Below, piece after piece: positions 617 through 62,756 of a stretch of 64,000 bases of DNA. Source of the DNA: a virus (taxonomy: Duplodnaviria; Caudoviricetes); IMG/VR virus record IMGVR_UViG_3300009678_001573, positions 31,907 to 95,906 of that record. One strand, given 5' to 3'. Position 1 is the stretch's first letter. Each line of letters starts with the position of its first letter. The position numbers were made by a program, and so were the translations under genes. The notes beneath the pieces were generated by a model. The model saw only the letters and a program-made list of their open reading frames with translations. It searched no databases and was not told the DNA's origin.

Positions 617-3600
617 ATGACCTTATTTATAGGACAACAAAAATTCGAAGGTATAAAAATTGGTGACCAACTACTCACCGATACCCTGGACGGCTATGGC
701 ACGACTATTGATGAACATCATCAACAGCAAGAACAAATTAACCAAACTATAATTCAGGCCCTAGATGGTTATGCACTTGCTCCCGAAGTGGGCTCCGGTG
801 CCGATGGATATGTAGCCTTCTTTACTGGAACAAGTTCTGTTGCCGGTGATAATGATTTATTCTGGGATAGAGAAGGTAATAGGCTTGGAATAGGTACTTC
901 TACACCAACATCTAAATTACAAGTAGTTGGAAATGCTTCTGTGCGAGCTGTCGGTGGTTCCTCTGGAAGTGAACAATTTGGAGAAAATGCCTCAGCAAGT
1001 GCGACAAACTCAACAGCTATAGGTAGTTCAACTATCGCATCTGGATCAACCTCGTTAGCCGTAGGTAGAGAGGCAGAAGCAATAGCATCTGGTGTTATAT
1101 CAATCGGTTATCAGGCTAATTCTGGTATTGTTGGCGTGAGTACCGGCAGTATGGCAATTGGTAGATTTACTCAAACTCCAGCAATTCAAGCTACAGCAAT
1201 TGCTGATGGCGCATTTGCTATGAGTAATGGCTCACTTGCCATAGGGGTAAATGCAGGCACCGGATATACTGATAATACAAAAACACACCAAACTGTTGTG
1301 GGCAATGGAGCGCGCGCCGCAAGTCACCGTAGTACCGCTATAGGTATCGCAGCTGCTGCAGGAGATACAAATGTTGATGCTACAAGTGCAATAGCTATTG
1401 GAGATACGTCTAAATCTGATGGTGTTAATAGTATTGCTCTGGGAACATCTGCATCTGCTACAAAATCAAACGCATTCGCTATAGGTGCCTCTGCCGTAAC
1501 ATCCGCCGATAACCAAGGCATATTTGGCAATTCTATTACTCCAATCAATCTTGTTAATTTTGGAAGTATGGCATTAGGAACACCATCTACTGCTCAAAAC
1601 TTTAAATTAGAAGTCGCCGGGGATGTCGGGCCAAATGTAGATGATGCTTATAGCTTGGGTTCAGAAACTTTTAGGTGGAAGGATGGTTATTTTGGGCCAG
1701 GCTCACTTCATATAATTTCAACGGCTGCTGAAAATAATTCCGGCTTTACTAGAGATTGGGTTTTAGGCACCAACGATACTGGCGGCATTGCTATTAAAAC
1801 CTCTGGTGCTTCTAAACTTTCATTTAATTCTAATTCTAATACTTGGTTCTCTTCGGGTAATTTTTCTTCCAGAGAGCCCGGTGGGGCTTCTAACAGCGAA
1901 CAATTTGGTGAATTAGCCATAGCTTCTGGCACTGATTCTACAGCCGTAGGTAGAGGCGCAACCGCAAATAATACTTCAACTACCGCTATTGGTAGTGGTG
2001 CTCAAGCAACATCTGCTGCAAATAATACTGCTATTGGACAAAATGCTCAAGCAGTTAATTCTGGTGATTCTACAGTTATAGGCATGTCGGCTTTAGCTAA
2101 TGGCGGCGATGGTGTAGCAGTAGGGCGCTCTGCACAAGCAACAGCTAATAGAGCAGTGGCTATTGGTAGAAATTCTGTAAGCTCTCAATCAGAGGCTACA
2201 GCACTTGGTTATGGTTCTGCTGCGCAACAAGTGCAGGCAGTAGGCATTGGCGCTTTTTCAAATGCAAATCAAATTGGGGCTACTGCTATAGGTGCTTTAG
2301 CTACAGCGACTGGTACAGGTGCCGTTTCAATTGGTTCAAGTGCCGGCGCAAGTGTAACCAATGGTATAGCAATCGGCTCATCAACTACCGCCGCAGCAAC
2401 CAATACGGTCATAATGGGAGCAGCAGTTTCTACAACTTCTGGTGCTACAAATGCAACAGTTATAGGCAAACCTGTTGGTACTGTTAGTAGCGCCGATGTT
2501 ACTTCTTTAGGTCATAATACCACTATTACTGGTGCACGAATTACTGTCATAGGCCACAACGCTATTGCTCAAAACGATGATGTTACTGCTATTGGTCGCG
2601 GGACTCAAGTTACTGGCCTACAGAGTACTTCTTTGGGCAGTAGTACAGTTGCTACAGGCGCTTCCGCTGTTTCTGTAGGTTTCGGAGCATCATCTACTGG
2701 ATCAGCAAATACTGCAATAGGGCACAACTCAGTTACTGGTTCTAGCGGAAGCAATACTGCTATAGGTAAAAGCGCCCAAGCTGGCGGAGATAATGCAGTA
2801 GCTGTCGGTGAAACAGCAATAGCTACTGCTGTTCGCGCTATAGCTGTAGGTGCTGATGCAAGTGCAGCAAGTACAAATAGTATAGCTATAGGCCAGGGCG
2901 CCTCTGCAGGCCCACTGGGTACCAATGCTAATTGCATAGCGATTGGATTCGGAACTCAAGCAAATGGAGCTAATGGAGCTACCGCCGTTGGCAGTACCGC
3001 TACCGCTTCTGCTGCTCAAAGTACTGCCCTAGGAAAAGACACCCTAGCCAATCAAACAAATGCAACAGCAGTTGGTTATTCGGCCGACGCAACCGGTGGT
3101 GATTCAACCGCATTAGGCTCTCAATCCACTGCTTCTTCTTCTGGCACAACTGCTTTTGGTTCGTCAGCTACAGCATCTGGTTCTAATTCTACTGCGATTG
3201 GTGCAACTACAAATGCCACTAATACCTCTACTGTTTGTATTGGTGCATCTTCTCGTGCTGCTGGCAGTGCTTCATTGGCTATAGGTCAAAATGCACAAGC
3301 ACAAACTGGAGCAGATAATACCATCCTAATAGGACAGGGTATTCAGACTACTAATCCAAGTGCTGTTGCTATCGGCTCAAGTATAGGAAGTAATATAGGA
3401 AGTAATTCAATTGCCATAGGAACCTCGTCTAATGCTAACGCCTTAACTTCTGTGGCAATAGGTACAGGTGCTACGGCCAATACAGCACACTCAGTGGCTC
3501 TGGGCGCAAGTTCTGTTGCAACCGGCACGAATGGCTCAACTGCGCTTGGTCGTGATGCCCAAGCAACTGGAGCTGATTCTACATCAATTGGTCATGGCCC

Positions 3601-7863: not shown

Positions 7864-7874
7864 TAGGAGTCTAA

Positions 7875-9632
7875 ATGGCACGCAGTGGGCGAGCAGGGTC
7901 TATAATTACGCTAGGAGTTAAATTTTACTCCAATGGCACTTTATTCGATCCTTTTGAAATAGAAGATGTTCAAATCTTCAATGATGCGATATTGAGTTCT
8001 CCTTTGATAGCAGAACTTACTCCAGTTCGTGTGTCTGTTGGTTTTTATCAAATACAATTTGAGCCACTAGAAACTATTGCTCTCGGTACCTATTATGATG
8101 AATGGACTTGGACTGCTGAAGAGTTCATGGCCTCCAATACTCAAAGATATAGCTTTGAAATATTAGAGCCAAGTGAAGCTGAACCTATACCGGAGCCAGA
8201 AGCTATTGGTGTCGTAGTTTGCCTACGCCCGAGACCTGAATGGGTACATAGAATGGGACTTCGAGTTCTTGAAGACGTCGGCAATGGCATGGGCGTTCGT
8301 TTATCTTGGCAAGAAGCTATACCCGGTGAAGATGACAAACAAGTCCACTATAATATATATCATGCAACAAAACGAGTTGGCGTTTTTGAAGATCAATTTT
8401 TACCAAAAGCAGTTACTACAAATGTTGAGGCCATAATAAATATAACGCCAGGCAATTTACATTATTTTGCTGTTCGGGCAACTGAATTTGACCCAGCTCA
8501 ATTTAATATAGCGGAACTTACTCAAATTGGTGATGGAGTAGGTAGATATCCAGATATTACAACTCTAACCACTTCTATAGATGCATACGGTGAAGTCGTA
8601 GTTGGTGTGGAAAGCAATGAAAACTTTCCCAGTGCTGGATTTTTATTAATTGGCACTGAAATTTTACGATATACAAGTCTGGGCACCAATACTTTTAATG
8701 TACCGACTAACGGCAGAGGTAATGTTGGAACGGCCTTTGCCTCGCACGATGTTGGAGATGAAGTTCGTTTATGGCGCGGCGTAGAAGAAGGTAATTCCGT
8801 AATTCATAGTTATACAGCAGCCTGGATGCAAAATCATGACATCCCAGGCAGCGGATATGCCTATAATCCAGATCCGGCGGTACAAGGTGAGTTTAATGTT
8901 GCAGAAGATGGTTATCGAGAGAACGCAGAAGATATTGTAACTACTGATTTAAGTGCTTCGGATGCTAATACGGCCAACTTTTCTACTTTTGATTTTTGTG
9001 GTTACCATAGACCAAGTATCCAGGAGACCTTTAGCGGCCAATGTGTCGGTAGTTATGTCGGCGGCGAATTTAATGGCTCTAGAGGCTTCAACTTCCAAGA
9101 TCGTATTTTGTCTCAATTAGATGTTATGTTGCAAGTGACTGGGGAACCAGTAATTCTGTTAAGACGCAGACAAACAGGCCGTCGTTGCAGATGTGGTGCT
9201 TCTGACTTACGCAGAGAGCATCCAAGACAGAGATGCCCATACTGCTTCGGCACGGGCTTCGACGGCGGCTACGAGAGATTCTTTAATACCAGGGCTATAT
9301 CAGAGTTATTTGTAAATACTGCTGGTAGGATTATGATAAGAACTAATCCTTTCGTAGACGACCTAAAAATTGAGCAAAGTCAGGGTCTTGTACAGCCATC
9401 TGAATTAACGGCCTGGACTATAGTATTTCCAACTATTAAAGACCGCGATATAATAGTAAGATTTAATGAAAATGGAACAGAAGAGTTCAGATATGAGATA
9501 CTAGATGTGACCAGAAATAGACTTGTATTTGGCCAAAGCGGTAGGCAAGAATTTAGAATGCGCAGAATGGATAAAACAGATGTGGTCTATCAATATCCAG
9601 CTAATGATCCTGGCTTATTCGTAACAATCTAA
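7875..9632 (+). CDS. neck / head-closure-like protein with N-terminal Ig/FN3-like domains and a CxC...CxxC zinc finger
   Basis: The C-terminal QLDVMLQVTGEPVILLRR...RCRC...RCPYCFGTGFDGGY...PTIKDRDIIV..F....RYEILDV pattern matches head-tail joining proteins of large myoviruses. VRLSWQEA...YNIY...PGNLHYFAVRA is FN3-like. AGGAG SD. Confidence 0.65.
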   Translation: MARSGRAGSIITLGVKFYSNGTLFDPFEIEDVQIFNDAILSSPLIAELTPVRVSVGFYQIQFEPLETIALGTYYDEWTWTAEEFMASNTQRYSFEILEPSEAEPIPEPEAIGVVVCLRPRPEWVHRMGLRVLEDVGNGMGVRLSWQEAIPGEDDKQVHYNIYHATKRVGVFEDQFLPKAVTTNVEAIINITPGNLHYFAVRATEFDPAQFNIAELTQIGDGVGRYPDITTLTTSIDAYGEVVVGVESNENFPSAGFLLIGTEILRYTSLGTNTFNVPTNGRGNVGTAFASHDVGDEVRLWRGVEEGNSVIHSYTAAWMQNHDIPGSGYAYNPDPAVQGEFNVAEDGYRENAEDIVTTDLSASDANTANFSTFDFCGYHRPSIQETFSGQCVGSYVGGEFNGSRGFNFQDRILSQLDVMLQVTGEPVILLRRRQTGRRCRCGASDLRREHPRQRCPYCFGTGFDGGYERFFNTRAISELFVNTAGRIMIRTNPFVDDLKIEQSQGLVQPSELTAWTIVFPTIKDRDIIVRFNENGTEEFRYEILDVTRNRLVFGQSGRQEFRMRRMDKTDVVYQYPANDPGLFVTI

Positions 9633-9744: not shown

Positions 9745-12408
9745 ATGGCTTCCATAGACGATACTTCGGTATATCCTGACGAGATCGACGGTTATTCTAC
9801 CTTACCGTTACGCAGAAATCTTGTCCATGAGATACGTGCCGAAGATCATAATAGGCTTCGTAATGCCATAGTTCGCATTCAGCAAGAGCTAGGCACAAAC
9901 CCATCAGGCTCATATTCCACAGTAGCAGCCCTCTTAAATAATGTGGCCGACGCGAAAGCACTGATAGATGCACATCTTATAGATACCACTGATGCCCATC
10001 CAGCAGTAGCCATCTCTATTACTGATTCTGGCGACAACTATGTTGCCACTAATGTAGAAGATGCTCTGTCCGAATTAGCTGCTATTTTACCAGTTGCTTT
10101 GGACGTTATAGGCGCTAATAATACCGATATACCAAATTCCGGTATTCCTGATTTTGTTGAACAAGAGGGTACCTTATTTTTGTTTAATACGGTCGGTGGC
10201 GGAAGTGATGTTGAAAAAACGCAACCAATTAATATAACTGGTATTCAAGTTATTGAAGTCGGCGAAGCTAACGGTGAGGGCTCAGGAGCTGAATTAGTAT
10301 TTAATCCAGTTGGCTCTAAGTTAACTTGGAAAGCGCCAGGAGATTCGGCTGGTGCAGAGGTTGATGTATCTAGTTTGGCTACCGGAGAAATAGTAACTTT
10401 AAGTTCTGGTGATACTTCTAAAAAAATAAGAATTGTTAGAACATCTGCTCCATTTAATATCATAGGATTGCCAACTGATATTTTTGATATCTATAAACTT
10501 AAAGCCAAAACAGGAGCCTATTCATTAGATGGAACAGGCATCAAAGATACTAATTTTATAACTCGTACATCGGTTGGTAGCACAGGAACAAGTCGTAGTC
10601 AGTTTGTTATCAAGGGTACTGTGTTTCCGGCAGATAAAGGCACCCTAGTACTACAAAGAAAACTGAGAAGTAGTTCTCAGTTTTCCCCTTCAGCTGTGTT
10701 AGATCTTGCTGAAAATTTTGACGAAGACGCCCGAGCAGATGGGCAATTGGTATACACTCCGTCATTAGAAGACTTCGATACTATTATATTATATGACAGG
10801 CATCCTGCCAGAAAAGATTATGAAACGCTAGCATTAGATGCAGATGGAAATCCAATTTATGAAAATTTCGATTTATCTGCAACATTTTCACCATTTCAAA
10901 TAGCAAAATATGTTATTCCTGTTTCTAATAATACCTTGATAGGTGGTGCATTAGAAGCGCCAATAGATATTTCTGCATCTGATGTTAATGATAAAGTATC
11001 TACCTATAGATTAGTTCATTATGGTCCCGGCGTTACTGACTTTAACGGAGAGCCTGATACATCTAATATATTTAGCATTAGTGATTCATTTAGTGATGCC
11101 GATGACGGTGACAATACAGTAAGAATGTCAAATGTCTTTTTGGACGACGATGCTACTAGGCCATCAATTAATGCATTGGTATTGCGCCCAGCATTAGATG
11201 TAGAGGTATTAGAAAAAACCATATCAGGTATTCATTACTTTAATGGGGCAGATGATTTATTTGATATAGAAATGAAGTCCGATACTAATATATTTAAAAA
11301 ATCTTATTTAAGAAATGATATATTAAGATTTACAACTGATGTCTTTACTTTTCCATCAGGAGATGGTTATGGTCAAAATGTTAGAGTAACTCAACTACGT
11401 GATGATGGGTACGACCTATATTCTGATTCCAATCTCCCGGATTTTACAGATATCTCAAAAGATCATGCCTTTTACCTTGTCAATGTCACAATCAATGATG
11501 GCAGAAGGCTATACATAGGTGAAAATAAATTTAGTGTGCGCAGTCATATTACTGGGACCATCTATGATCCATTCGGCCCAGGCGATGCCAACGATGCATA
11601 TGGTTTAATTACCAGTCAATTAAAAATATTATCAAACTCTTACAGTAGATATAGAGCAACTGATACAGAAGAATATTTCACAGACGAGAGCTATAGAGTT
11701 GGCTCAAATGAAATATTTGATTTTGAGCTTGATAATGGGCAATTTACGCATGATTATGGATCAAATGGAGACGGCTATACCCTTAAAGCATGGGATAGCG
11801 GGGTTGCATTAGATACCGTAGTGGATGTAAATTCAAGTACTGCTAACGGATTGCAATGTGGCGGAAAATTTGGTACTGGATCAGAACCCGATGATACGGC
11901 AGATTTCGTGTTTCCTGGTTTAATTTACCCACAAGATGACTATTCTGCGACTGATATACGACCATTGCAATTTGGCTCCGTAGATTATAGTGCATTCTCT
12001 GGTGATAGATACTATCAAAGATTATTTAGCCTTAACAAAACTACTAATGGTGGCAAATTACGCATAGTAAGCGCGGGAAGTTCTCTTATTTCATTTAACG
12101 ACATTGCAGCCTCTAATGCAAGTCGTTTTTGTAAGATAGAAGTTAAAATACCTGGAGTTGGGCCAAATAGTACTGAATGGTTAGATTTGGGCAAATTCTT
12201 TATTACAGGTTTATTTGAAGACGGCGACGGCGCATTAATTCCACCAATTACCGGTGTCGAGGGTGATTTTACCATTCCATTTACATTTGGAGAAAGAAAC
12301 ACCGCAGATAGCGGAAATATGATTGCGGTGAAAGTAACATATTTCGGCTCACAGATAACTATCGCAAAAAAGAAAGTACTTTCGTTGTTACAATTATTAG
12401 ATCCATAA
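9745..12408 (+). CDS. virion structural protein (887 aa), probably collar/fibre-associated
   Basis: The N-terminal YPDEID...AEDHNRLRNAIVRIQQELGTNPSG domain is shared with the genes at 21652 and 24694. AHPAVAIS and ATNVEDALSEL are fibre-type motifs. GGAG SD. Confidence 0.6.
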   Translation: MASIDDTSVYPDEIDGYSTLPLRRNLVHEIRAEDHNRLRNAIVRIQQELGTNPSGSYSTVAALLNNVADAKALIDAHLIDTTDAHPAVAISITDSGDNYVATNVEDALSELAAILPVALDVIGANNTDIPNSGIPDFVEQEGTLFLFNTVGGGSDVEKTQPINITGIQVIEVGEANGEGSGAELVFNPVGSKLTWKAPGDSAGAEVDVSSLATGEIVTLSSGDTSKKIRIVRTSAPFNIIGLPTDIFDIYKLKAKTGAYSLDGTGIKDTNFITRTSVGSTGTSRSQFVIKGTVFPADKGTLVLQRKLRSSSQFSPSAVLDLAENFDEDARADGQLVYTPSLEDFDTIILYDRHPARKDYETLALDADGNPIYENFDLSATFSPFQIAKYVIPVSNNTLIGGALEAPIDISASDVNDKVSTYRLVHYGPGVTDFNGEPDTSNIFSISDSFSDADDGDNTVRMSNVFLDDDATRPSINALVLRPALDVEVLEKTISGIHYFNGADDLFDIEMKSDTNIFKKSYLRNDILRFTTDVFTFPSGDGYGQNVRVTQLRDDGYDLYSDSNLPDFTDISKDHAFYLVNVTINDGRRLYIGENKFSVRSHITGTIYDPFGPGDANDAYGLITSQLKILSNSYSRYRATDTEEYFTDESYRVGSNEIFDFELDNGQFTHDYGSNGDGYTLKAWDSGVALDTVVDVNSSTANGLQCGGKFGTGSEPDDTADFVFPGLIYPQDDYSATDIRPLQFGSVDYSAFSGDRYYQRLFSLNKTTNGGKLRIVSAGSSLISFNDIAASNASRFCKIEVKIPGVGPNSTEWLDLGKFFITGLFEDGDGALIPPITGVEGDFTIPFTFGERNTADSGNMIAVKVTYFGSQITIAKKKVLSLLQLLDP

Positions 12409-34767: not shown

Positions 34768-34794
34768 GAACAGCGCGCCCATAGGGCGCTGTTC
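34768..34794 (+). terminator. GC-rich stem-loop after the tube gene (terminator/attenuator or mRNA-stabilising hairpin)
   Basis: GAACAGCG-CG-CCC-ATA-GGG-CGCTGTTC forms an 8-bp plus 3-bp stem in an AT-rich gap. The downstream U-tract is weak. Confidence 0.5.
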
Positions 34795-34827
34795 TGCCTT
34801 GTGAATGAATAATAAAGGAGAAAGATT

Positions 34828-35978: not shown

Positions 35979-35983
35979 ATTAA

Positions 35984-38497: not shown

Positions 38498-39381
38498 TGT
38501 CTAAACCGGTATTTAAAGCTGGCCCACTAACAATTACGGCACAAGACGCTGGCCAGATCAGAGACACAATTAATGCCTTTTCCCCATTTCCAAATACACG
38601 AATGGGTACGGGCATTACTAACAGAGACCAGCAAATCATTTCCTGGCGGCTTCCTAATGGCACTGCCGTTCAGATGTATATTAACCCTCAAAGCCTTTCT
38701 ATACAACACAATAAACAAATAAACACGGTAAGAACTAAAGGTGGTTATGTAGTGCAATACTGGGGTAACGAATTGACTCAAATTACAGTTGAAGGTACCA
38801 CAGGCTCATCTGGTATCAAAGGTATCAATGTACTAGAAGACATTTATAATGCAGAAAATAGAGCATTTGAGTTGGTAGCCCAGGCACAAACCAATGGTCT
38901 AATAGACCGAATAGGCGGGAGTGATGCTGATTTGGCTGATTCTGTTTTGCCAAGTTTAGCTAGCGAATTGAGCAACAAAAATTTTATTTTGCGTCCGTCG
39001 CTAGCCTCATTAGCTACCAGTATTCTTATGTTTTATCAGGGGGTTCAATACAAAGGCTTTTTCAAAGGCTTTTCTGTAAGAGAGAGCGTTGATCAATTAG
39101 GTATGTTTAATTATACAATGAATTTCGTAGCAACTGAAATTCGTGGCAAGCGTGATAACTTTATGGCTTGGCACAAAGAACCCATGGCCGACGACCTCGC
39201 TGGCCAATTAATAAATGGTATAGGCAACTCACTGCGCAGATCTTTTGGTTTGAGTGATCAGGCTCCAGAGTCCTTCCATCCGGAAAATGCTCCTCTTACT
39301 TTCGGTGGAAATTCATTAGCAGCTCAACTTGGATTTACTTCAGGCGAGCAACAGGCAATACAACAAGATTTAATTTTCTAA
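38497..39381 (+). CDS. baseplate tail-tube initiator-like protein
   Basis: MYINPQSLSI...RTKGGYVVQYWGNELTQITVEGTTG...YKGFFKGFSVRES...FNYTMNF is a tube-fold initiator pattern. It is translationally coupled (TAATG) to the tape measure gene. Confidence 0.7.
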   Translation: MSKPVFKAGPLTITAQDAGQIRDTINAFSPFPNTRMGTGITNRDQQIISWRLPNGTAVQMYINPQSLSIQHNKQINTVRTKGGYVVQYWGNELTQITVEGTTGSSGIKGINVLEDIYNAENRAFELVAQAQTNGLIDRIGGSDADLADSVLPSLASELSNKNFILRPSLASLATSILMFYQGVQYKGFFKGFSVRESVDQLGMFNYTMNFVATEIRGKRDNFMAWHKEPMADDLAGQLINGIGNSLRRSFGLSDQAPESFHPENAPLTFGGNSLAAQLGFTSGEQQAIQQDLIF

Positions 39382-39394
39382 AGGAAAACTTTTA

Positions 39395-53211: not shown

Positions 53212-56200
53212 ATGGCACTTGCTATAGTGCGCATAAATAAAATTACCGTTTCAAGTATGGAAATTTTATTCTCTGATGAAATAGACCAGAATATTGGTAT
53301 AGCAAACGTGTCTATTACGTCCCAAATAGATAGTGTTGCTAACCCAGAAATAATTTCTGTTGCTGTAGAAAACGATTTGGTTTCTATAACCTTCCGTCCA
53401 CTATTTCCAAACGTTCAGTACAAGATAATCTTCAGCAGTACAGATGAGCAGCCATTCCAAACTATTAATGGTGATAGAATTACTGAAGATGGTAATCGCA
53501 ATAGCTTGTTCTTCTCAAGTCCAGGCGAAGATGAAAACGTCATCCGCGATACTATGTTGAATAATATTTCGGTTATTTATGAGACTGAGGAGCCATCTGT
53601 AGTACGTACGGTTATTACAGGTATAGCGAACGAATTTCAAAAATCATCTGATGCACTTCAAACTGTCAAATCAGCAAACTATATATCAGTAGATGTTGCG
53701 GATGAGCGACTTATAAGAGACGATGGACCGATAGATAAATTTGCTAACGGCGGAGTTTATGAAGTATTACGAGTTGCATCTGTTCCAACTGGCTCAAGTG
53801 TCGCAGGATCCATTGAATTTAATGATGCCAGAATTCAAGGTTTCCAAGTAAATGCTACCACTATTGTTAATTCTGTAATAGGAAGCCTAACAGAAGATCC
53901 AATTAGTTTACAAGCTATTGAAACGATAAATGAAAGAGTTACAGACGATGCAGAGTTGAATAACTTCTTTGATGGCATGTTGATTAAAGTAGCTAATCGC
54001 CCGGTCATACAGGTTATATCAGTTACCCTAATTAGAGATAATGTACTGATACCGTATGACATTGAAACATTTGGATATACCCTACTCGATAACAGATATG
54101 ACACTTTGTCGGCATCTAGAAATGTAAATTTATCTGATCAGGAAATAGAATTATCTCTTAGTTCCTTAACTGGGCAGCCTGGTGGGTTTCTATTACCAAA
54201 AGTTGGAGATGAAATACGAATCTCATACGTTCATAAGAGATTAGGTAGAGATATTACAACTGATAGTGTTCAGCTAAGTACAATTAAAAATGTTGTTAGA
54301 GAACTAACTCCGGCTACTATTACAAAATTTTCTTTGAAGCATGCACCGATAGTAGCATCAAATGATGAGATTCCAGTATCCGATGGTGTTGTATTTTTAA
54401 ATACTCAGGCTGCAGATGACCAACCTCCATTTGCCACTATACATCCAGCATTTACAAGGGAAATTAGATTTAGTCTTAGCAGATTACCCGCTAGAGCTGG
54501 AGAATATAGCGTTAACTATGAAACTGGGGAGGTATTTGTATTCGGTGCCGATCAAAATAATGATGGTACTGGAGACGACCCGCCAGTAGCTAACTACACC
54601 TATCGTCAAATATTTACAAATAATCTCGATTATACCTTTAATAGTGATAGAGATGAGCTTGCTGTAAAGAGTATTAGAAATATAAGTGGCATTGATGCCA
54701 AAATTTCATTTGATTATGAGGATACATTTGCTGAAGGTGAAGATTATCGCTTCTTGTCACATATCGAGGCCCTAAACGAAAGAGTTGAAAATAGACTTAT
54801 TGAAGACTTAAAAATACAAACTAAAAATTTCCCAGTTACAGACGTATTTCGTATTTTCAACGAAACAACTGGAGAAATATATACGCCCGTACGATTTAAT
54901 GATAATTCCATATCATTTACTGGTCGTAAGGTTCCAAGACAACGAGATATAACCAGAGAGCGCGCAACCTTTGCCAGAATTCCACAAGAAACTTTGTTAG
55001 TTTCCGATGAATTAGAAAATACTATTGGTTTGAAAATATTTAAGATAGAATTGGAAAATAGAGGTATCACAGACAACCAAGGAAGATTTATAGGTGCTAA
55101 CTTTGACTCTTCTGTTCTATTTTCTGATACAAGCATCTTTATTAATGAAATGTTTTATGAAGATGACTTATTTGATAGCGTTGATGTTAATTTGGATAGG
55201 CTGGAACAAGAAGGCGACTATCTAATAGATTATAATAATGGAATAGTTTATGTTGCTGTTTCTGATGAACAAAATACCAATATCGGTGATGTAACTTACC
55301 AGTATAAGAGTATTCAAACAAGAAACAAGCATATCCTCAGAGCTTATAATATTTATAGAAGCTCCAGTGTTCTTCGACCAAATATTAGAGACTATACTAT
55401 CGGAGCTATAAGCGATTCATCAGTAGATATTGTTAACTTAGAGGAAGTTGGTGAGCGTTTTATAGATGGTAATCCATCAAGAGTTGTTATTGTTGGTAGC
55501 TATCAAAATGGCGAAGATGGCATTACTACTGATGGCATAGCTATCTTTACCTCCAATACTGCTGTGTTTACAACAGATGATTTGCAAAGAACTTTAATTG
55601 TGGGATCAAGTACCCAGTCACCAGTCGAAGAAGCAACTATTACAGGCATTATCAATTCTCATCAGGTGACTGTTGATATTCCATTTGCTGTCACTAATAC
55701 CGGTAGAGTATGGAATGTTGTAGACTTATCAGAAGATGCTGAAAAAATAATAACACTTGGTAATGATATCTTGTCAGTCAAGAATATCTATTTGGTTGGA
55801 CAGCTTGGAACAGTCCCTGCCTCTGAGCTGGATGGTTATTTTGATATTTCTCGTGATAGTATAGATGGAAATACCATCTTGTTAGGAGAAGATAATCCAT
55901 TAAGCGTTGGTGATGCTGTAATTGTAAATTATAATTACGGTGAAGTTTATATTGATTATAGACATCTACAAGACGAATTGTTAATATCATATGAATATGG
56001 CAACAATAGTCTAGATTGGAGCATTAGTGATTCTCTCGCTCCAGAGGAAGAATACTTTGTTACTTATAGATACGGAGCTTTAAGAGAGCCACTACTAGCA
56101 AACTTTGGAGCTCTAACACAGATTCCAGAGCTTACAACCTTCTCCCCAAATCTAGATAGAGAAACATATCGTTCTGTGGTCGGTGGAACCCTACAGTCTT

Positions 56201-59200
56201 TTATAGAAGGCCCAACTATTCCCTCTATAGAAAGGCTAGTAGAATCATTTACTGATGTCACTCCAAATATTAATGAAGCAGCTTTCAATAATTGGGTGTT
56301 AGGGCGAGATAACTTACATTTACGCGATGTTGAAATTTCTAATGGCACACTATTCGATATCGGAAGATATGATAATGGTGTTGTTGTAGAGGGCGATAAG
56401 AATGTTAGAGTGCCAGCTCTCGCGCACTTTAGATTAAATGAAGGAACTCTTGAAACATGGGTAAGACCTGATTGGAAAGGATTAGCTAATGACGCATCTC
56501 TTACTTTTGATATAGCTATAAATGATGAGGCTGATGCAGAACAAGTATTTATTGGCTTTTCAAGCACAAATCCGGCTCAAATACCATTCACTTTAAATAT
56601 TGACGACCCATCCGTATTCGGTGAGCCAGCTAATATTGAAGATGAAGTCGGTTATTTTATATGGTTTGATGAATTTGCTAATACATGGAATATGCGTTGG
56701 CGCGGTTCTTTAACCGAATATCACTCATTTACTGGTACCATTACAACTACTGGCGAATTTTATAATGTTAAAAATCCAGTTGGTGAAGATGGATACGAAA
56801 TTAATGAAATTACCGATACTATAACTAGTTCTATTAAAACTATAAGATTTGAAGCAACAATAGATGCTCACGAAGACGGCGCTGGTAATAGTATAGATGG
56901 TGGAAACTTCACTGATACGGAGTTTGCTGCTATTTATAATGGTGGTGGTTTTAAGACTTCTACCTTTGAATACACATTTGATGGTGGTGACTTCCTTGAT
57001 ACCGAATTCTCTCCAGAACAACAGCCTGGATTCTCAACAGATGGTATTTCGTTTGCTTCTGATGACCAACACTTTATATTCGATATGGCAGCAAGACCAG
57101 AATCAAATAGAGTTTCTTTGTATAAGGATGGCACAGGATATTTAAACTTCCAAGTATTTGATAATCGTGCTTTGTCTTCAGATAATGTAGGATTCTATAA
57201 TTTATCCACTAATATAAGAGACTGGCAGGCAAGTGAGCCCCATCATTTAGCTATGGCCTGGAAATTTAATTCTGTAGATGAGCGAGATGAAATGCATTTA
57301 TTCGTTGATGGGGAAGAGGTGCCAAACTTATTCAAATTCGGTGGAAATCCAAAGGCAAGTAGTGCTTATGATTTTGGTGATGTTGGTGAAGAAATCATTA
57401 CCTCTGCTGCTACTAGACCAATTGTTGGTGGTTCAGACGGCTCATCTAATGCCGGCTCCAATGTATTTGTTTCGCAAACTGTTAATTTTGTAGAATTAGG
57501 CGTTCTTGTTGGTGACTCTTTTTATATTTTAGACGATACACCAGATGGAACAGGTGATCCCAATTTTGGTACTGTATATATAATAACTGGTGTCGGGGAA
57601 AATAGTTTGTCTTTGGATAGACCACTTACCCTAACTATAGGTGATATTAACTATACAATAAATAGAATTGTCGCTACAGTTACTACCCCAGTTAATTATC
57701 AGGACTTTATAGTATTGGCCGTCGCACCAGATGGAACAGAAACTGAATTAAATGGTTTAACAGCTGATCATCCAGATTATTCTATAACCAGAGGCTCTGA
57801 TAACTCTCATATAATATCAATTAATAATGGTGTAGCAGAGGGTTATGCAATTCTCATAAAAACTTTGGGCTTATTATTTAGAAGATGTCGCGAAAAAATA
57901 TTCGTGTACTCTGAGTCTGATGAGATTAGGGTTAATGCAGCTGCTCCAATGAACTTAAATGATGTTAGCATTACTGCTATTATATTACCAAGAACATTAA
58001 TTACGGCAGATGGCTATGATGGCTATACTGGATTTGATACCATACAAATTGATATTGATAATCAAGATATTTCTATTTTACAATCTACTTTTACAGATGT
58101 ATGTCAACCAAGCAATAACGCTAATGGTAAAAAATTAGCGGTAACCTTATCTGGAGATAATATCAATTATGATATACCGGACAATAAGGTTACAATACGA
58201 GGAACGACTTATTCTGGTGCGGCGGAAGAAATTATCACCTTCACTGATAATGGCACTATTGTTACTAGCGAGTATTGGTTTACAATAGATACAATTACTG
58301 TTTCAGCTGTATTAATTGACCCAACCCAATCAGCCGGCATGGTAGAAATCAAAGAAAATATACCATTAACCAAATCAGAAAATAACGGAGATTATGCTGA
58401 AGTTGTAGAATACTCAAATGGCATATTCAGATTAGAAATATTTGGTTCAGCTGGAATGCCATTCGTGCTTCATGGGCATTGTTATTATATCATAGATTAT
58501 CCTTCATTCTTACGCGTAAGACTCAATAATCAGCCAGACCAATTCTTCATTGGCAGTGATTACTCTGGTGCTAATAGATTTGATGGTGTAATCGATGAAT
58601 TTAGAATATTAGATACAGCACTAACAGACACAAGAGTTGGTGAAACTGTACTTTCTGGAGAAGTTTCTATTACAACTGACTTTAACGAGCCTAATGCCTT
58701 TGTTAATGATGAAAACACATTATTCTTAGCGCATTTTGATACTGACGCAACTGATTCATCAGTCTTTAGAGATAGGTTCGATGAAGGCTTTGCTGTCGCC
58801 CCAAGCGTTAACGAAGACTTTGGTTATGCTATTAAAATATCTGAAAATAGACCATTTATTGTTGACAATGCCGAAGCGGTATTCAATAATAATGAGGGAA
58901 CTATTGAATTTTGGGTAAGTCCAATAGATGACAATGCTAATGACCCAAATTTCCATTATTATATAGATATGTCCCCGGTTATTATCGAGGAATTGGTCTC
59001 TGCAACGAGCACTATAGTGATTGCCCCACAACGAGTGCGAAGTGTTGAAAGCGTAAGACTAGTAACCGATACTGCTAATACTGGCACAAACTTCTTTACT
59101 AGCGGAAGTATATCTAATGTTGATAGAAAAACAATAACATTAGGAATACCACTTCCAAATCAGAATATGCCAGTTAAGATAACCTATACTCCGCTAAACA

Positions 59201-59916
59201 GCCAGGGCGATAGGGTAAGCGTATACAGAGACCCAAATGGTTTCGTTAACTTCTTCATGAGAGCCTCTGGTGTTGATCATCTAGTAAGTGTTCATACCAA
59301 TTGGAAACGTCATACTTGGCACCGCATAATGGTTATGTGGCGCACCAATAGCCTTGATAATGAAGATAGATTGCGCTTATTTGTAGACGGTGATGAACGC
59401 GGCACTATTAAGTATGGGACCGGATTAATATACGGCACTGGTGTTATTTATGGTGAAGCCGAAGTAAGACCTGGTGTAAATCGCTTTATCGTAGACAATA
59501 TTGATTTAACCGATACATTCTCGCAGATATTCATAGGCACAGATACATTAGGCGTACATGGTGCTAGGGCAAGACTGGATAATATAAGATTCTCAGAAAT
59601 AGAAAGATTGCAATCAGTTAGACTTACTACTAACGGCGCATTTGATGTTAATTTCACATCTAATACTGAATTCGTAGAACCAGTTGTTGAAGATTCCAAT
59701 ACTACTGGATTATTTGACTTTAATAAGGAAGAAGGCGATATAGAGTTTCTAGCAACCTTGATAAATGCAGAGAGGGGTATTTTCAGATTTGAGGTTGAAG
59801 TTATAGACTCGTTTGATAAGGTGATAGGTAATGCACAATTGGAAGAATTGCTTAAGGGCTTGATAGATACTATTAAGCCAGCTCACACCGAGTCAATAAT
59901 TAAATTTACTAAGTAA
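53212..59916 (+). CDS. large baseplate wedge protein (2234 aa) with two LamG/concanavalin-like domains and a gpI-like C-terminus
   Basis: Contains LLANFGAL...RETYRSVV....GPTIPSIERLV, LamG motifs (EGTLETWVRP, HHLAMAW...LFVDG, FIGSD...FDGVIDEFRI; EGTIEFWVSP, WHRIMVMW...LFVDG, LDNIRFS) and the terminal IKPAHT. Confidence 0.75.
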   Translation: MALAIVRINKITVSSMEILFSDEIDQNIGIANVSITSQIDSVANPEIISVAVENDLVSITFRPLFPNVQYKIIFSSTDEQPFQTINGDRITEDGNRNSLFFSSPGEDENVIRDTMLNNISVIYETEEPSVVRTVITGIANEFQKSSDALQTVKSANYISVDVADERLIRDDGPIDKFANGGVYEVLRVASVPTGSSVAGSIEFNDARIQGFQVNATTIVNSVIGSLTEDPISLQAIETINERVTDDAELNNFFDGMLIKVANRPVIQVISVTLIRDNVLIPYDIETFGYTLLDNRYDTLSASRNVNLSDQEIELSLSSLTGQPGGFLLPKVGDEIRISYVHKRLGRDITTDSVQLSTIKNVVRELTPATITKFSLKHAPIVASNDEIPVSDGVVFLNTQAADDQPPFATIHPAFTREIRFSLSRLPARAGEYSVNYETGEVFVFGADQNNDGTGDDPPVANYTYRQIFTNNLDYTFNSDRDELAVKSIRNISGIDAKISFDYEDTFAEGEDYRFLSHIEALNERVENRLIEDLKIQTKNFPVTDVFRIFNETTGEIYTPVRFNDNSISFTGRKVPRQRDITRERATFARIPQETLLVSDELENTIGLKIFKIELENRGITDNQGRFIGANFDSSVLFSDTSIFINEMFYEDDLFDSVDVNLDRLEQEGDYLIDYNNGIVYVAVSDEQNTNIGDVTYQYKSIQTRNKHILRAYNIYRSSSVLRPNIRDYTIGAISDSSVDIVNLEEVGERFIDGNPSRVVIVGSYQNGEDGITTDGIAIFTSNTAVFTTDDLQRTLIVGSSTQSPVEEATITGIINSHQVTVDIPFAVTNTGRVWNVVDLSEDAEKIITLGNDILSVKNIYLVGQLGTVPASELDGYFDISRDSIDGNTILLGEDNPLSVGDAVIVNYNYGEVYIDYRHLQDELLISYEYGNNSLDWSISDSLAPEEEYFVTYRYGALREPLLANFGALTQIPELTTFSPNLDRETYRSVVGGTLQSFIEGPTIPSIERLVESFTDVTPNINEAAFNNWVLGRDNLHLRDVEISNGTLFDIGRYDNGVVVEGDKNVRVPALAHFRLNEGTLETWVRPDWKGLANDASLTFDIAINDEADAEQVFIGFSSTNPAQIPFTLNIDDPSVFGEPANIEDEVGYFIWFDEFANTWNMRWRGSLTEYHSFTGTITTTGEFYNVKNPVGEDGYEINEITDTITSSIKTIRFEATIDAHEDGAGNSIDGGNFTDTEFAAIYNGGGFKTSTFEYTFDGGDFLDTEFSPEQQPGFSTDGISFASDDQHFIFDMAARPESNRVSLYKDGTGYLNFQVFDNRALSSDNVGFYNLSTNIRDWQASEPHHLAMAWKFNSVDERDEMHLFVDGEEVPNLFKFGGNPKASSAYDFGDVGEEIITSAATRPIVGGSDGSSNAGSNVFVSQTVNFVELGVLVGDSFYILDDTPDGTGDPNFGTVYIITGVGENSLSLDRPLTLTIGDINYTINRIVATVTTPVNYQDFIVLAVAPDGTETELNGLTADHPDYSITRGSDNSHIISINNGVAEGYAILIKTLGLLFRRCREKIFVYSESDEIRVNAAAPMNLNDVSITAIILPRTLITADGYDGYTGFDTIQIDIDNQDISILQSTFTDVCQPSNNANGKKLAVTLSGDNINYDIPDNKVTIRGTTYSGAAEEIITFTDNGTIVTSEYWFTIDTITVSAVLIDPTQSAGMVEIKENIPLTKSENNGDYAEVVEYSNGIFRLEIFGSAGMPFVLHGHCYYIIDYPSFLRVRLNNQPDQFFIGSDYSGANRFDGVIDEFRILDTALTDTRVGETVLSGEVSITTDFNEPNAFVNDENTLFLAHFDTDATDSSVFRDRFDEGFAVAPSVNEDFGYAIKISENRPFIVDNAEAVFNNNEGTIEFWVSPIDDNANDPNFHYYIDMSPVIIEELVSATSTIVIAPQRVRSVESVRLVTDTANTGTNFFTSGSISNVDRKTITLGIPLPNQNMPVKITYTPLNSQGDRVSVYRDPNGFVNFFMRASGVDHLVSVHTNWKRHTWHRIMVMWRTNSLDNEDRLRLFVDGDERGTIKYGTGLIYGTGVIYGEAEVRPGVNRFIVDNIDLTDTFSQIFIGTDTLGVHGARARLDNIRFSEIERLQSVRLTTNGAFDVNFTSNTEFVEPVVEDSNTTGLFDFNKEEGDIEFLATLINAERGIFRFEVEVIDSFDKVIGNAQLEELLKGLIDTIKPAHTESIIKFTK

Positions 59917-59933
59917 CTTGAGGGAGTAATAAA

Positions 59934-62756
59934 ATGGCAGCAAAAGTTTTACCAAGAAATAATTGGTTTGATGGACAACAAATAACAGAAACGGATATGG
60001 ATGTTGAGCAAATAGCCTGGCATGATGGTCTTGCCGCCGTTGCTGATCATACAACGGGCAGCGGTGTCGAAAAAGAATTTGCTACTCAACCAATATTGTT
60101 CGATAGTGATAATGTGCCCTCCTCAATTCAAGGCCTCATAGATACTGAAAATTTTGATGGTGAGCCAATATACGAAACTGACTCATTTGGTGAAACGGTC
60201 TTTATTCAACCCTCTGATGTTGCTGAAGGTGCCCAACTTGAAATAGAAATATCTGGATCTGAGTTGGACGGCGCCCCCAGTCTTAAGATTTATATTTTTG
60301 GTACAATATTCGGAGGAAACTTTGTACAAGAGGTTTTAACCTTTGAGAAAAATGAATCTCAGGTTACCAAAAATTACTTTACAAAAATGATTGCTTTCAT
60401 GACACAGGATTTATTTGGCAATCAAAATACTATAATTACTGGCACAGCTTGTCGAAATAATGGTGGTCGACTACGCATCCTTGAATCATCACAGATGGCA
60501 GTTGTAAGGGATGAGATAATGGCCGAGCAATCCAGCGAACCAAATATGGATTATTTTAATTTTAAGCCCGCTACCTTAGCAAAAACATTAGATATATTAT
60601 TAGATGAAATTGCAGACAGAGAAGACTTAAGTTCAGACGATCTGAATATAGATATTTTTGAATCTACTACCACTAGATTATTACCAAGAAATGCTAGCAC
60701 TGGATTAATAATTGGTGAAAAATTTAAGGCCACTACTAATAATATACAAAAAATTCAATTATTGCTATCGGTAGAGGAAAATGAATTTGCACTTCCCGGA
60801 GAAGAGTTTAATTGGTCCGGTGATATAGTAGTTGGCATTAGAAAGCTCCAAACTTCTACTACCTGTCCGACAGATGCTATTCCGGGTACAGCCATTGAAT
60901 TCGATCCAGAACCATCTGCTTTGGCCGAAGTCTCTTTCGATCAAAATGATTTGGCGGAATTGGGCGTATCACTTTCAGATGTTCCACAGATAGTCGACTT
61001 TGTATTTACCCAGTCTTTATTAGCTAATCCAAATATAGAACCCTCAACGGTGCCTGGCGATTTCTATATTTTAACAATTAGACGTTCCGGCGATATAAGT
61101 GTTGGAAATATAGTTCTACAAGAGGCGGCAAATACTAATGCCTCATCTGATGAAGCTGATGAAATGCTCATGTCGGTATTCTCACAGAATATTTGGACTG
61201 ATGTACCAGAAAGTGATTTATGGTTTAGAATATTTACTGATGCAATTCGTATCACAAGTGGTTCTGCTTTTGATAGTGGCGTACAGATACCATCCCCAAA
61301 GATTAAAAAGAATGAAGCAACGGGTGTAGAAGAACCATTCATCGAGGGGCATCACAGCTTGATTGATGTTTCTCAAAGTGCCCTTAATTATATCATTATA
61401 CAAAGGGCAAATAACTTTACTGACCCACAACCGCATCCGGCGACTGGTAATTTAGTATTTACGCGCATAGAAGATGTTTCACAAGTTTCGGTTGTATCAG
61501 AGGAAACATTAACAACTCTTATAGATGCTGGAAACGAGCCAATTGTCTTAGGTTCAATTAGGGACACCAATCCTGTTAACAATCCCACCATAGAGGGAAG
61601 GCTAGAGTTTCCTGGATTGGCTAATGGTAATCAGCTAACTATTATACAGCCCAATTCAGATATCATATTAAATAATTTGGTTGGTTCTGTAATTATACCA
61701 AATGTTAACGAACAAGATTTTAGATATAGAATAATTGCAGTTGAAATAATTACAGATGCTTATGGAGATGTTAATGGAGATGGAATTATTGACCTCAGTG
61801 ATGTCTCTAGAGCACAGGCCCTAGACGGGTATTCAAAGGACTTAGAATCTGGGTCGTTACCATCAGTTGATCAAAAGGCTGCAATTGATGCAAAGACTGT
61901 AACAATAGACGAAATACTCCGTGCTGATGTAACAGAAGATGGGGTAATTAATATTTTAGATCCCCAACTTATCCAACAAAATATTGCTTTGGGCACTGCA
62001 TTTACGGCTGGTTCAACTTTCGTCAGAGCAGTATTAACACTTGAGAATTTAGTTGACCCGCTCAGCACAACGGTAGATCTATTGGCTGCGGATCCATCAT
62101 TTAATACAGTTCCATTTAATGTAATTAATTTTAGAATTAACTTTGTTCCACTATGGAGTCCAAGCAACCTAATAATAACAGATTTGCGAAGATTTGTTCC
62201 CAAAACCTTTACTGAATTTACATCAGAAGATATTACTGAAGACCCACAAAATGGCGGACAAAACACAGTATTTATGCCAGGCGATTTATTATTGGGTGGC
62301 AATCTTCTTGACACCTTTGGAGATCCATACAAGATAGACTTGGAGGTTAATACAATAGTAATTAACTTGCCTACAGGGTCTACACAAGGCGAACTAGATA
62401 TATTTAATAACTTTATTAAAAATCAAATGAGATTTGCTGATGGCACTTTTGTTCCATCCACTGCTCTAGATGATAATCAAGTTAAAGTTGCTACTGCGAT
62501 TAAATCATTTGTCAAAGATACGGGTACAGCAGATTTCGTAGACGGATTAACATCAATTGATGAAACAATAGCAGTATTATATACACAAAGCTCTGGAATC
62601 TTGAGAATTAGAGCGGCCAATATAGAAAACATAAGTACAAGGCCAGAATTGTCAACAAAAATACTGTTGACGGTGTATCTAAAGAAAGCAGGATTCAGAA
62701 ACAGTGAACAAACAGTAACATCCGATAGGGTAACAGAATTACTTGTTCCAGTATAA
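59934..62756 (+). CDS. baseplate/fibre adaptor-like virion protein (940 aa) with a dockerin-like Ca-binding pair
   Basis: The N-terminal RNNWFDGQQITETDMDVEQ resembles contractile-tail fibre attachment N-termini. GDVNGDGIIDLSD ... ADVTEDGVINILD is dockerin-like. Confidence 0.6.
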   Translation: MAAKVLPRNNWFDGQQITETDMDVEQIAWHDGLAAVADHTTGSGVEKEFATQPILFDSDNVPSSIQGLIDTENFDGEPIYETDSFGETVFIQPSDVAEGAQLEIEISGSELDGAPSLKIYIFGTIFGGNFVQEVLTFEKNESQVTKNYFTKMIAFMTQDLFGNQNTIITGTACRNNGGRLRILESSQMAVVRDEIMAEQSSEPNMDYFNFKPATLAKTLDILLDEIADREDLSSDDLNIDIFESTTTRLLPRNASTGLIIGEKFKATTNNIQKIQLLLSVEENEFALPGEEFNWSGDIVVGIRKLQTSTTCPTDAIPGTAIEFDPEPSALAEVSFDQNDLAELGVSLSDVPQIVDFVFTQSLLANPNIEPSTVPGDFYILTIRRSGDISVGNIVLQEAANTNASSDEADEMLMSVFSQNIWTDVPESDLWFRIFTDAIRITSGSAFDSGVQIPSPKIKKNEATGVEEPFIEGHHSLIDVSQSALNYIIIQRANNFTDPQPHPATGNLVFTRIEDVSQVSVVSEETLTTLIDAGNEPIVLGSIRDTNPVNNPTIEGRLEFPGLANGNQLTIIQPNSDIILNNLVGSVIIPNVNEQDFRYRIIAVEIITDAYGDVNGDGIIDLSDVSRAQALDGYSKDLESGSLPSVDQKAAIDAKTVTIDEILRADVTEDGVINILDPQLIQQNIALGTAFTAGSTFVRAVLTLENLVDPLSTTVDLLAADPSFNTVPFNVINFRINFVPLWSPSNLIITDLRRFVPKTFTEFTSEDITEDPQNGGQNTVFMPGDLLLGGNLLDTFGDPYKIDLEVNTIVINLPTGSTQGELDIFNNFIKNQMRFADGTFVPSTALDDNQVKVATAIKSFVKDTGTADFVDGLTSIDETIAVLYTQSSGILRIRAANIENISTRPELSTKILLTVYLKKAGFRNSEQTVTSDRVTELLVPV

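Follow-up and report, generated by a model that had tools for sequence, protein, structure and literature searches.

Why should a single tripeptide, Asp-Gly-Tyr, recur across the outer proteins of a phage particle, and what might read it? The question is raised by a 64,000-nt stretch of DNA (the window, by which we mean the whole stretch analysed, with a counted protein set of 21,049 aa) from an uncultured phage of ~468 kb. Among the tail, fibre and sheath proteins that face outwards, in this phage as in its relatives, DGY occurs at 12-16 times the frequency expected by chance (Table 1). A preliminary description of the window had proposed that DGY, together with its variant DAY, is a sequon for a particle-modification system. 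Its scope proved too small: the enrichment is clade-wide, and ~60 further DGY sites lie in the 32 kb upstream of the window on the same contig.

Table 1. Motif carriers, motif-free genes and candidate enzymes, with site positions (nt of the window unless stated otherwise; site counts in brackets).
Feature	Position	Strand	DGY	DAY	Remarks
2288-aa fibre	617..7483	+	689, 764, 803, 1682, 4718, 5333, 7034, 7145 (8)	1643, 4679, 5360 (3)	YadA-head-like repeats; Pfam YadA_head E 2.9e-51
585-aa virion protein	7875..9632	+	8907	8580	
887-aa fibre-like protein	9745..12408	+	9787, 11362, 11404, 11770	11593	
2617-aa spike or fibre	12424..20277	+	13213, 13699, 14473, 15388, 17032, 18616 (6)	13120 (1)	
1010-aa fibre	21652..24684	+	22084, 23176, 23944	24076	Paralogue of 24694
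1695-aa beta-helix fibre	24694..29781	+	25129, 25915, 26173, 26308, 27349	26206	Pfam Beta_helix E 1.8e-9
261-aa protein	30382..31167	+	30751		Directly upstream of sheath
Tail sheath, 856 aa	31442..34012	+	(0)	31958, 32030 (2)	Both DAY(G)
Tube, chaperones, tape measure, tube initiator, 1580-aa hub	34046..44137	+	(0)	(0)	Motif-free
685-aa baseplate or spike protein	44148..46205	+	45438		
Baseplate J-like protein, 1076 aa	49978..53208	+	51916		Pfam Baseplate_J E 7e-30
2234-aa distal fibre	53212..59916	+	55831, 56788, 58009, 58018		Laminin_G_3 domain
940-aa last fibre	59934..62756	+	61824	61755	
GT4-family glycosyltransferase, complete, 402 aa	62792..64000	+			Pfam Glycos_transf_1; candidate writer
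Sulfotransferase, 236 aa	genome 26661-27371, outside window				Between two DGY-rich fibres

All per-protein counts of the preliminary description were reproduced, giving totals of 35 DGY and 11 DAY (seven of the latter as DAYG), with five DGF and two EGY as controls. Per-protein composition predicts 2.9 DGY (Poisson p 1e-25) and a first-order Markov model 5.2 (p 8e-18); DGY ranks first of all tripeptides in the window, and none of 2000 within-protein shuffles (mean 2.9, maximum 13) reaches 35, so that the excess stands under each of these nulls. The enrichment of DAY is weaker, at 11 against 2.5 expected in the window and 1.6-fold clade-wide. When sites whose flanks resemble each other were linked so as to collapse repeats, 41 clusters were left, 32 of which include DGY (p <= 2e-15). 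The nucleotide pattern GAYGGNTAY occurs 35 times in frame, with no off-frame copy on the + strand and a single copy on the - strand, and the Asp, Gly and Tyr codons at the 35 sites mirror background usage, bearing out the free codon variation reported earlier; this in-frame-only occurrence and background codon use argue that selection acts on the peptide. The 12 carriers are indeed mostly non-homologous, true paralogy being limited to the 21652 and 24694 fibres, and the motif-free remainder, previously put at ~5,900 aa, comprises 15 proteins (5,915 aa) with no site of either kind, against 6.0 expected at the window-wide 12x ratio (p = 0.002).

Within the virion block the motif is limited to peripheral proteins, as had been proposed, with none in the inner tail proteins. 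In G001, a complete 435-kb relative, the motif is likewise absent from the orthologues of the tube, chaperone, tube initiator and hub; BLAST finds no orthologue of the tape measure in that genome. Foldseek matches the sheath with probability 1.00 to the phi812, T4 gp18, P1 and pyocin sheaths. Three sheath columns read DGY in 18-21 of 28 orthologues; the DAY(G) pair of this phage corresponds by homology to columns one and three and lies in loops of an extra beta domain confidently modelled by AlphaFold2. Across the fibres, 49-83% of sites adjoin columns rich in indels; for residues in general the figure is 16-22%. The sheath model, taken at the level of secondary structure, and the indel proxy together suggest that DGY sits on surface loops, in agreement with the placement first envisaged. 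Some sites are well kept, with DGY in 15 of 20 orthologues of the 30382 protein and, at aa 1193 of the 53212 fibre, invariant in nine aligned orthologues. The motif nonetheless turns over, being gained and lost between orthologues: DGY is swapped for unrelated tripeptides, new DGY appear in insertions, and sites per orthologue range from 1 to 15. Two DGY sites of the 12424 protein have the context YDGYSMW in common. The 7875 protein has weak PHROG matches (the best to a family of unknown function, then to a baseplate wedge and a virion structural protein), and its G001 orthologue carries five DGY; for a DGY-rich 482-aa protein, no cultured phage relative was found.

Comparison of structural with non-structural genes confines the excess to the virion block of G001, where 180-300 kb holds 82 DGY against 7.7 expected and the other 315 kb holds 18 against 12.3, ruling out a genome-wide amino-acid bias. 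Among 80 loci on related contigs anchored on the glycosyltransferase GT4 discussed below, the upstream fibres carry 860 DGY against 52.3 expected, and the genes downstream of GT4 carry 22 against 32.2. Nor is DGY a general property of phage tails or fibres, since 100 kb of Bacillus phage G, tail module included, holds 4 against 4.6. DGY also has a practical use, since it cleanly marks out, across hundreds of uncultured genomes, which genes form the virion module and which of them encode its outer parts. The motif is also strict: clade-wide observed/expected ratios are 16.2 for DGY, 1.3 for NGY, 0.39 for EGY, 1.1 for DGF, 0.5 for DGW and 0.27 for the depleted DSY, and DTY is not enriched, so that the Asp carboxylate and the Tyr phenol OH both seem to be needed. 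No flanking consensus emerges from 203 non-redundant sites (~0.1 bit per position), around which K and R alone are depleted, and the notion of a self-contained peptide signal is thereby borne out. DGY is, in short, a linear motif with strict D and Y that offers a residue able to accept a glycan and is independent of fold context.

A sister lineage qualifies this picture. In three of its genomes (G006, G011 and G014), the homologues of the sheath, the 261-aa and 1695-aa proteins and the J-like protein carry DGY at chance level (2 against 2.6), and we found no substitute enriched tripeptide in the lineage. Because these are the same virion proteins without DGY, the fold does not need the motif. 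The lineage had appeared to be a clean DGY-negative, GT4-positive control, a status that must be softened, as both fibres adjoining GT4 are still DGY-rich (14 against 2.0 in G013).

What, then, could read such a motif? GT4, already noted as adjacent in the preliminary description, heads a glycosylation cluster directly beside the motif carriers. Both PF00534 (36.0 bits, cut-off 26.4) and PF13692 (35.6 bits, cut-off 27) match its GT-B C-terminal domain and place it in the GT4 family, its acidic residue E278 is invariant in seven orthologues, and no NCBIfam equivalog reaches cut-off. Orthologues occur in 6 of 10 relative records searched and 4 of 5 from the sister lineage, the misses being fragments, and typically lie ~30-45 kb downstream of the sheath; in six large genomes with GT4 and in the 80 loci the gene directly follows the last fibre gene. 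No GT4 relative was found in any bacterial or archaeal genome. The cluster runs past the window, whose end at the GT4 stop is an artefact of database trimming only: on the full contig GT4 is followed by five GT2 genes, a methyltransferase and a further group-1 (GT-B type) glycosyltransferase. Automatic 'provirus' trimming had cut this genuine phage glycosylation cluster out of the record.

G001 for its part encodes at least eight GT2 enzymes, a UDP-GlcNAc 2-epimerase and dehydratases, and in three complete relatives no priming phosphoglycosyltransferase (Bac_transf), Wzx or Wzy scored above cut-off. Nucleotide-sugar enzymes and many soluble-type glycosyltransferases are thus present without lipid-carrier export genes, which is consistent with what would be expected of direct cytoplasmic transfer. 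The preliminary description had proposed testing for dependence on a particular enzyme; apart from GT4, treated below, no other glycosyltransferase tracks DGY across complete genomes. Two small GT2 genes after GT4 are conserved in 47 of 58 DGY-rich loci, but this pair is missing from the complete DGY-rich genomes G016 and G018, which rules it out as a clade-wide writer and leaves no single transferase tracking the motif cleanly. GT4 itself is also found in the sister lineage, most of whose virion proteins are devoid of DGY, and its presence is therefore insufficient for the virion-wide pattern. The glycan clusters could instead serve DNA modification or another acceptor, and the lack of DGY in the major head protein likewise counts against glycosylation at this motif.

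We suggest that DGY is a recognition motif, and that its likeliest reading, one held tentatively and at somewhat less than an even chance, is as a Tyr-acceptor sequon for cytoplasmic glycosylation of the virion. DGY, with DAY tolerated in this lineage, would be a three-residue motif placed repeatedly and independently on peripheral surface loops of the fibres, the outer sheath domain, the neck and the baseplate periphery, where it would be read by a trans-acting factor. The likeliest reader would be a set of soluble glycosyltransferases encoded by the phage itself, led by the GT4 whose gene comes immediately after that of the last fibre. These enzymes would assemble a glycan directly on the Tyr hydroxyl, in the cytoplasm of the host and at the time of late gene expression, yielding a particle with a sugar coat. 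The sequon idea of the preliminary description is supported in part: the enrichment, strictness, context independence, virion restriction, loop placement and turnover of the motif and its physical linkage to glycosylation genes are established, and we infer that the motif is modified at all, that the modification falls on Tyr and that GT4 carries it out. The broader proposition that the DGY tyrosine is covalently modified by phage transferases, through GT4-led cytoplasmic glycosylation and in this phage perhaps also sulfation, we regard as only just short of an even chance.

Were this broader proposition correct, DGY would be the first phage sequon for post-translational modification to be described across a whole virion, with a density tuned per lineage, some tagging just two distal fibres and others all of the outer particle, in the manner of a viral glycan shield. 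Huge phages would be coating their fibres and sheath by means of a portable three-residue code and their own enzymes, which would explain the 10-20 kb of sugar-metabolism genes beside structural genes and predict exposed virion surfaces in uncultured phages. It would also represent a new Tyr-directed protein-modifying activity, with a minimal tag useful for glyco-engineering.

Three-residue sequons are known from other systems, among them N-X-S/T (including the cytoplasmic HMW1C/NGT type) and the Bacteroidota O-glycosylation motif D-(S/T)-(A/I/L/V/M/T). Like these, DGY is minimal, linear, fold-independent and enriched on exposed loops; it is gained and lost as are the sequons of viral glycan shields, and it places Asp first, as does the Bacteroidota motif. 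Unlike them, its sole hydroxyl is that of Tyr (the behaviour of DSY and DTY is in keeping with this), its acceptor and enzyme are putative, and in the three complete relatives neither an oligosaccharyltransferase nor a lipid-carrier pathway was found. Our literature search returned nothing applicable on a DGY motif, phage Tyr sulfation or Tyr O-glycosylation sequons, nor any case in which a soluble GT4 or GT2 from a bacterium or phage O-glycosylates Tyr, which counts against the glycosylation reading.

Two further systems are close. In mycobacteriophages, phage-encoded glycosyltransferases glycosylate virions (Freeman et al., 2023, as cited in PMC12619734); there too glycosyltransferase genes lie beside virion genes, and a cytoplasmic coating of structural proteins has been proposed. 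As summarised in that citing article, the mycobacteriophage glycans are reported on the C-terminal ends of the subunits of capsid and tail tube (PMC12619734), whereas in the DGY phages capsid and tube lack the motif and the candidate acceptor is an internal tripeptide scattered over the fibres and outer sheath. The second is Tyr O-glycosylation of Gram-positive S-layers, as in Paenibacillus alvei SpaA and Thermoanaerobacter, where the glycan is likewise on a Tyr hydroxyl of a self-assembling, many-copy surface protein (PMC2943079), the DGY glycan being a predicted one. S-layer glycans differ in that a lipid carrier serves for their assembly and an O-oligosaccharyltransferase then attaches them outside the membrane, at only two or a few sites, and that review describes no DGY-type sequon (PMC2943079).

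Docking-site and other Tyr-modification alternatives remain compatible with the data. In the first, which we judge unlikely though the most serious of the rivals, DGY would be a non-covalent micro-site requiring no enzyme and bound by a decoration or cement protein, a host-surface polymer or a metal ion. A context-independent, strict, loop-located, peripheral and turned-over motif fits a binding site as well as it fits a sequon, the failure of any transferase to track the motif cleanly is what such a site would lead one to expect, and differing hosts could account for the differences between lineages. Three residues are, however, very few for specific binding of a protein or glycan, and we found no gene in the virion block that accompanies the motif and might encode a partner: those common to G000 and G001 there also occur in the DGY-poor lineage. 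Docking further leaves the tight, universal adjacency of DGY-rich fibres to GT4 unexplained. We note that, in its host-polymer version, it would involve many weak contacts along the fibres during adsorption.

The motif might alternatively have no reader at all. Asp-Gly is a good former of tight turns, and, followed by an aromatic anchor, it might act as a staple stabilising long-lived extracellular beta-rich proteins. The sheath sites do lie at strand-loop junctions, Tyr replaces an older aromatic in some modules (RWKDGYFGPG as against RWASVYVGP or RWKDIWLGPG), and some sites are invariant over deep divergence. That the equivalent combinations of turn and aromatic (NGY, DGF and DGW) do not share the enrichment of DGY argues against this idea, as do the sister-lineage homologues that fold without the motif: the variants are not equally favoured, nor is the motif retained with the fold. 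DGY also appears alike in helical-repeat caps, propeller blades, beta-helices and N-termini, is absent from equally beta-rich inner tail proteins and from the tail module of another jumbo phage (Bacillus phage G), and varies between 1 and 15 sites among orthologues. We consider such a structural role improbable.

Another modification of Tyr (sulfation by the 236-aa sulfotransferase in the present case; phosphorylation, oxidation or cross-linking more generally) strikes us as decidedly improbable. The enzyme has a PAPS-dependent sulfotransferase fold (Sulfotransfer_1 23.2 bits, cut-off 22; Sulfotransfer_3 26.3 bits, E 1e-5), its gene is flanked by fibres with 19 DGY, and its best profile matches among solved structures are phenol and protein-tyrosine sulfotransferases (against PDB sequences, SULT1C2 8e-4, SULT4A1 0.004 and TPST1 0.012); its AlphaFold2 model (pLDDT 51) is too poor to classify it. 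In G002 a second, unrelated sulfotransferase precedes the sheath by ~17 kb. With TPST1/2 and RaxST the system would have in common the modification of Tyr, favoured by nearby acidic and disfavoured by basic residues, which agrees with the depletion of K and R around DGY. The sulfotransferase encoded among the fibres of this phage resembles TPST1 weakly at the profile level, but it is not conserved with the motif, and its similarity to TPST is no better than that to cytosolic phenol sulfotransferases. Known Tyr sulfation sites have an acidic residue at -1, not -2, whereas DGY has Gly at -1 and Asp at -2. Across the clade, matches are sporadic (G002, G018 and G011), and none was found in the complete DGY-rich genomes G001 (protein and PF13469 searches) or G016 (PF00685), which rules the enzyme out as a clade-wide writer. 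The sulfotransferase-like genes of G018 and G011 sit within the glycan cluster or next to it, a position that suggests sulfation of sugars.

That repeats, codon bias or a DNA-level signal produced the pattern can be dismissed as vanishingly improbable, since, although some DGY sites lie in internal repeats (four small clusters), the shuffles and Markov model, the independent contexts that remain after clustering (32 in the window, 203 clade-wide), the frame and codon counts and the confinement of the excess to the virion block of G001 all tell against it. The next-ranked tripeptide of the window, AIG, is itself such a repeat artefact, with 42 of its 48 copies in the YadA-like repeats of the 617 protein.

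We find that the enrichment of Asp-Gly-Tyr (DGY) is real, strong and clade-wide, and that the tripeptide behaves like a recognition site read in trans. When the window was translated as 27 open reading frames (21,049 aa), the distribution over 12 proteins reported in the preliminary description was reproduced exactly, with 35 DGY and 11 Asp-Ala-Tyr (DAY), as were its counts of DAYG (7 of the 11 DAY), DGF (5) and EGY (2). The claimed excess is borne out: per-protein composition predicts 2.9 DGY and a first-order Markov model 5.2, DGY heads the ranking of over-represented tripeptides in the window (p = 1e-25 under composition, 8e-18 under the Markov model), and its count never gets to 35 in 2000 within-protein shuffles. 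All 35 copies of the codon pattern GAYGGNTAY on the coding strand are in frame, the opposite strand has a single copy, and codon choice at the 35 sites, described as free, matches background usage for D, G and Y; the signal hence resides in the peptide. When sites whose flanks resemble each other are merged, 41 clusters remain, of which 32 contain DGY, and the only true paralogues among the 12 carriers are the proteins starting at 21652 and 24694. The second-ranked tripeptide, AIG, is an artefact of the YadA-head-type repeats of a single fibre (42 of 48 copies), which indicates that the test separates artefact from real signal. The 15 proteins said to lack the motif (5,915 aa, including tube, chaperones, tape measure, tube initiator, hub and the glycosyltransferase GT4) would be due about six sites at the window-wide ratio and have none (p = 0.002).

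The motif extends well beyond this genome. A search of IMG/VR with the sheath protein returned 29 loci, nearly all of them 5-15x enriched in DGY. The relative G001, with a complete 435-kb genome, has 82 DGY vs 7.7 expected in its virion block (180-300 kb) and 18 vs 12.3 in the remaining 315 kb, which excludes a genome-wide amino-acid bias and makes the motif a property of the virion. At 80 loci used of 112 found by GT4 anchoring, the 10 kb upstream of GT4, encoding fibres, contain 860 DGY vs 52.3 expected, and the 10 kb downstream 22 vs 32.2. The motif is strict, with clade-wide observed/expected values of 16.2 for DGY, 1.6 for DAY, 1.3 for NGY, 1.1 for DGF, 1.0 for DTY, 0.5 for DGW, 0.39 for EGY and 0.27 for DSY. 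No extended flanking consensus was found in 203 sites with <40% flank identity, near which a depletion of Lys and Arg is the sole bias. In Bacillus phage G, a distantly related jumbo myophage, DGY is not enriched (4 vs 4.6 expected). We also note that NGY never occurs in frame in the window, although the coding strand carries 12 off-frame copies of AAYGGNTAY; given the clade-wide value, its absence from this genome is probably due to chance.

Individual sites turn over between orthologues. At three sheath columns, 18-21 of the 28 orthologues have DGY and the others DSY, DTY, DEY or unrelated residues; the sheath studied here has DAY at two of them, a tolerance that is lineage-specific. DGY has been gained at six other sheath columns, each in single lineages. 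The two distal fibres (2234 and 940 aa) have a few invariant sites, such as aa 1193 of the former, most being lineage-specific, in place of unrelated tripeptides or within insertions, so that orthologues carry 3-15 and 0-6 DGY, respectively; 49-83% of sites lie beside indel-rich columns, vs 16-22% of all residues. The expected loop location is supported by an AlphaFold2 model of the sheath built from 19 sequences, in which each of the two DAY falls in a loop directly following a beta strand, within a domain (residues 70-300, pLDDT 70-91) additional to the conserved core that matches the phi812, T4, P1 and pyocin sheaths in Foldseek. Extra domains on tail sheaths face outward.

A sister lineage (G006, G011, G013 and G014) offers a natural negative control. 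It carries syntenic homologues of the sheath, the proteins at 30382 and 24694, the hub, the J-like protein and the distal fibres, with DGY at chance (2 vs 2.6 in G006; 14 vs 6.1 in the G011 block) and no alternative enriched tripeptide. These folds evidently do not need DGY, a strong argument against a purely structural role, and we regard a structural staple as the less likely explanation. A GT4 orthologue occupies the same position in the sister lineage as well, and the two fibres directly upstream of it are DGY-rich (14 vs 2.0 in G013, 8 vs 1.4 in G014, 6 vs 1.4 in G011). Together with the complete 335-kb genome G018, which is intermediate (17 vs 4.5 expected), this indicates that the extent of the system varies, ranging between the distal fibres alone and the entire outer particle.

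GT4 is the sole enzyme always present beside DGY-rich fibres. The best-supported mechanism, which we put forward tentatively, is that the phage's cytoplasmic transferases would O-glycosylate the tyrosine of DGY. No priming phosphoglycosyltransferase, flippase or Wzy-type enzyme scored above cut-off in three complete genomes, suggesting that the predicted transferases reach their targets directly in the cytoplasm. Past GT4, the untrimmed contig encodes five GT2, a methyltransferase and a further group-1 (GT-B type) glycosyltransferase; G001 has a zinc-finger protein, at least eight GT2, a UDP-GlcNAc 2-epimerase and three epimerase/dehydratases. The sister-lineage cluster, adjacent to virion genes, is instead GT-B-rich and includes a sialyltransferase-like GT29 as well as a DHDPS-family enzyme, which suggests that these phages may make a nonulosonic-acid-type sugar. 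No transferase apart from GT4 tracks the motif: two small GT2 lie 3' of it in 47 of 58 DGY-rich loci and are absent from the sister lineage, but also from the complete, DGY-rich G016 and G018. No relative of this phage GT4 family was found in a genome collection of ~186,000 bacterial and archaeal species.

The rivals to tyrosine glycosylation are a non-covalent docking site and another tyrosine modification. A sulfotransferase gene lies between two DGY-rich fibre paralogues holding 19 DGY, and its profile weakly matches phenol and protein-tyrosine sulfotransferases (its structure model is poor); it might sulfate tyrosine in this phage. As a general reader of DGY it is ruled out, sulfotransferases being sporadic in the clade and not found in G001 or G016. 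In G018 and G011 such a gene lies in or beside the glycan cluster, and the more economical view is that the glycan is what becomes sulfated. No description of a DGY motif was found in the literature searched.

Features of the phage and its relatives, with locations
Feature	Location	Remarks
Major head protein	genome 1-1026	PHROG E 2e-78
Sulfotransferase, 236 aa	genome 26661-27371 (L002:8661-9371)	upstream of window
YadA-head-type repeat fibre, 2288 aa	window 617-7483	Pfam E 2.9e-51; 11 stretches, most of protein
195-aa protein upstream of sheath	window 29792-30379	weak prealbumin/CnaB-like (SpaA) and CarboxypepD_reg-like match; conserved in both lineages
Laminin_G_3/concanavalin-like domain	window 53212-59916, aa ~1775-1809	in 2234-aa fibre
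Dockerin-like calcium-binding segment	window 59934-62756, aa 610-684	in last fibre; E 2.4e-4, just under cut-off; DAYG and DGY on its flanks
GT4, complete, 402 aa	window 62792-64000	last gene of window
Genes after GT4	L144:11178-21209	untrimmed contig
Second, unrelated sulfotransferase, 211 aa	relative G002, L053:1306-1941	beside LAGLIDADG endonuclease, ~17 kb upstream of sheath
GT29 sialyltransferase-like gene	G014, L202:6118-6774	
DHDPS-family gene	G014, L202:8245-9438	sialic-acid-lyase/synthase-like
TubZ-like tubulin gene	G001 218302-219666 (L042:18302-19666)	between glycan cluster and replication genes

The IMG/VR record is 95.9 kb long and the window takes up its final 64 kb; the 32 kb upstream of the window encode ~60 more DGY in 10.6 k aa, with 11 in one 482-aa protein and 8 in one 678-aa protein. 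Some DGY lie in recurrent fibre modules (a 27-aa helical repeat ending LDGY, GDGY-x-AF-F/Y-TG, and RW-K/R-DGYFGPG), and the majority fall outside any such module. Labelled 'provirus', the record was itself cut out of a 468,446-bp contig, and its end coincides with the GT4 stop codon; the trimming probably took the phage glycan cluster for host DNA. The particle is unusually rich in appendages. Some 96 kb (genome 1-31906 and window 1-62756), with almost all coding on a single strand, specify roughly 20 or more fibre/spike-like proteins of up to 2617 aa, whose genes are interspersed with those for head and neck.
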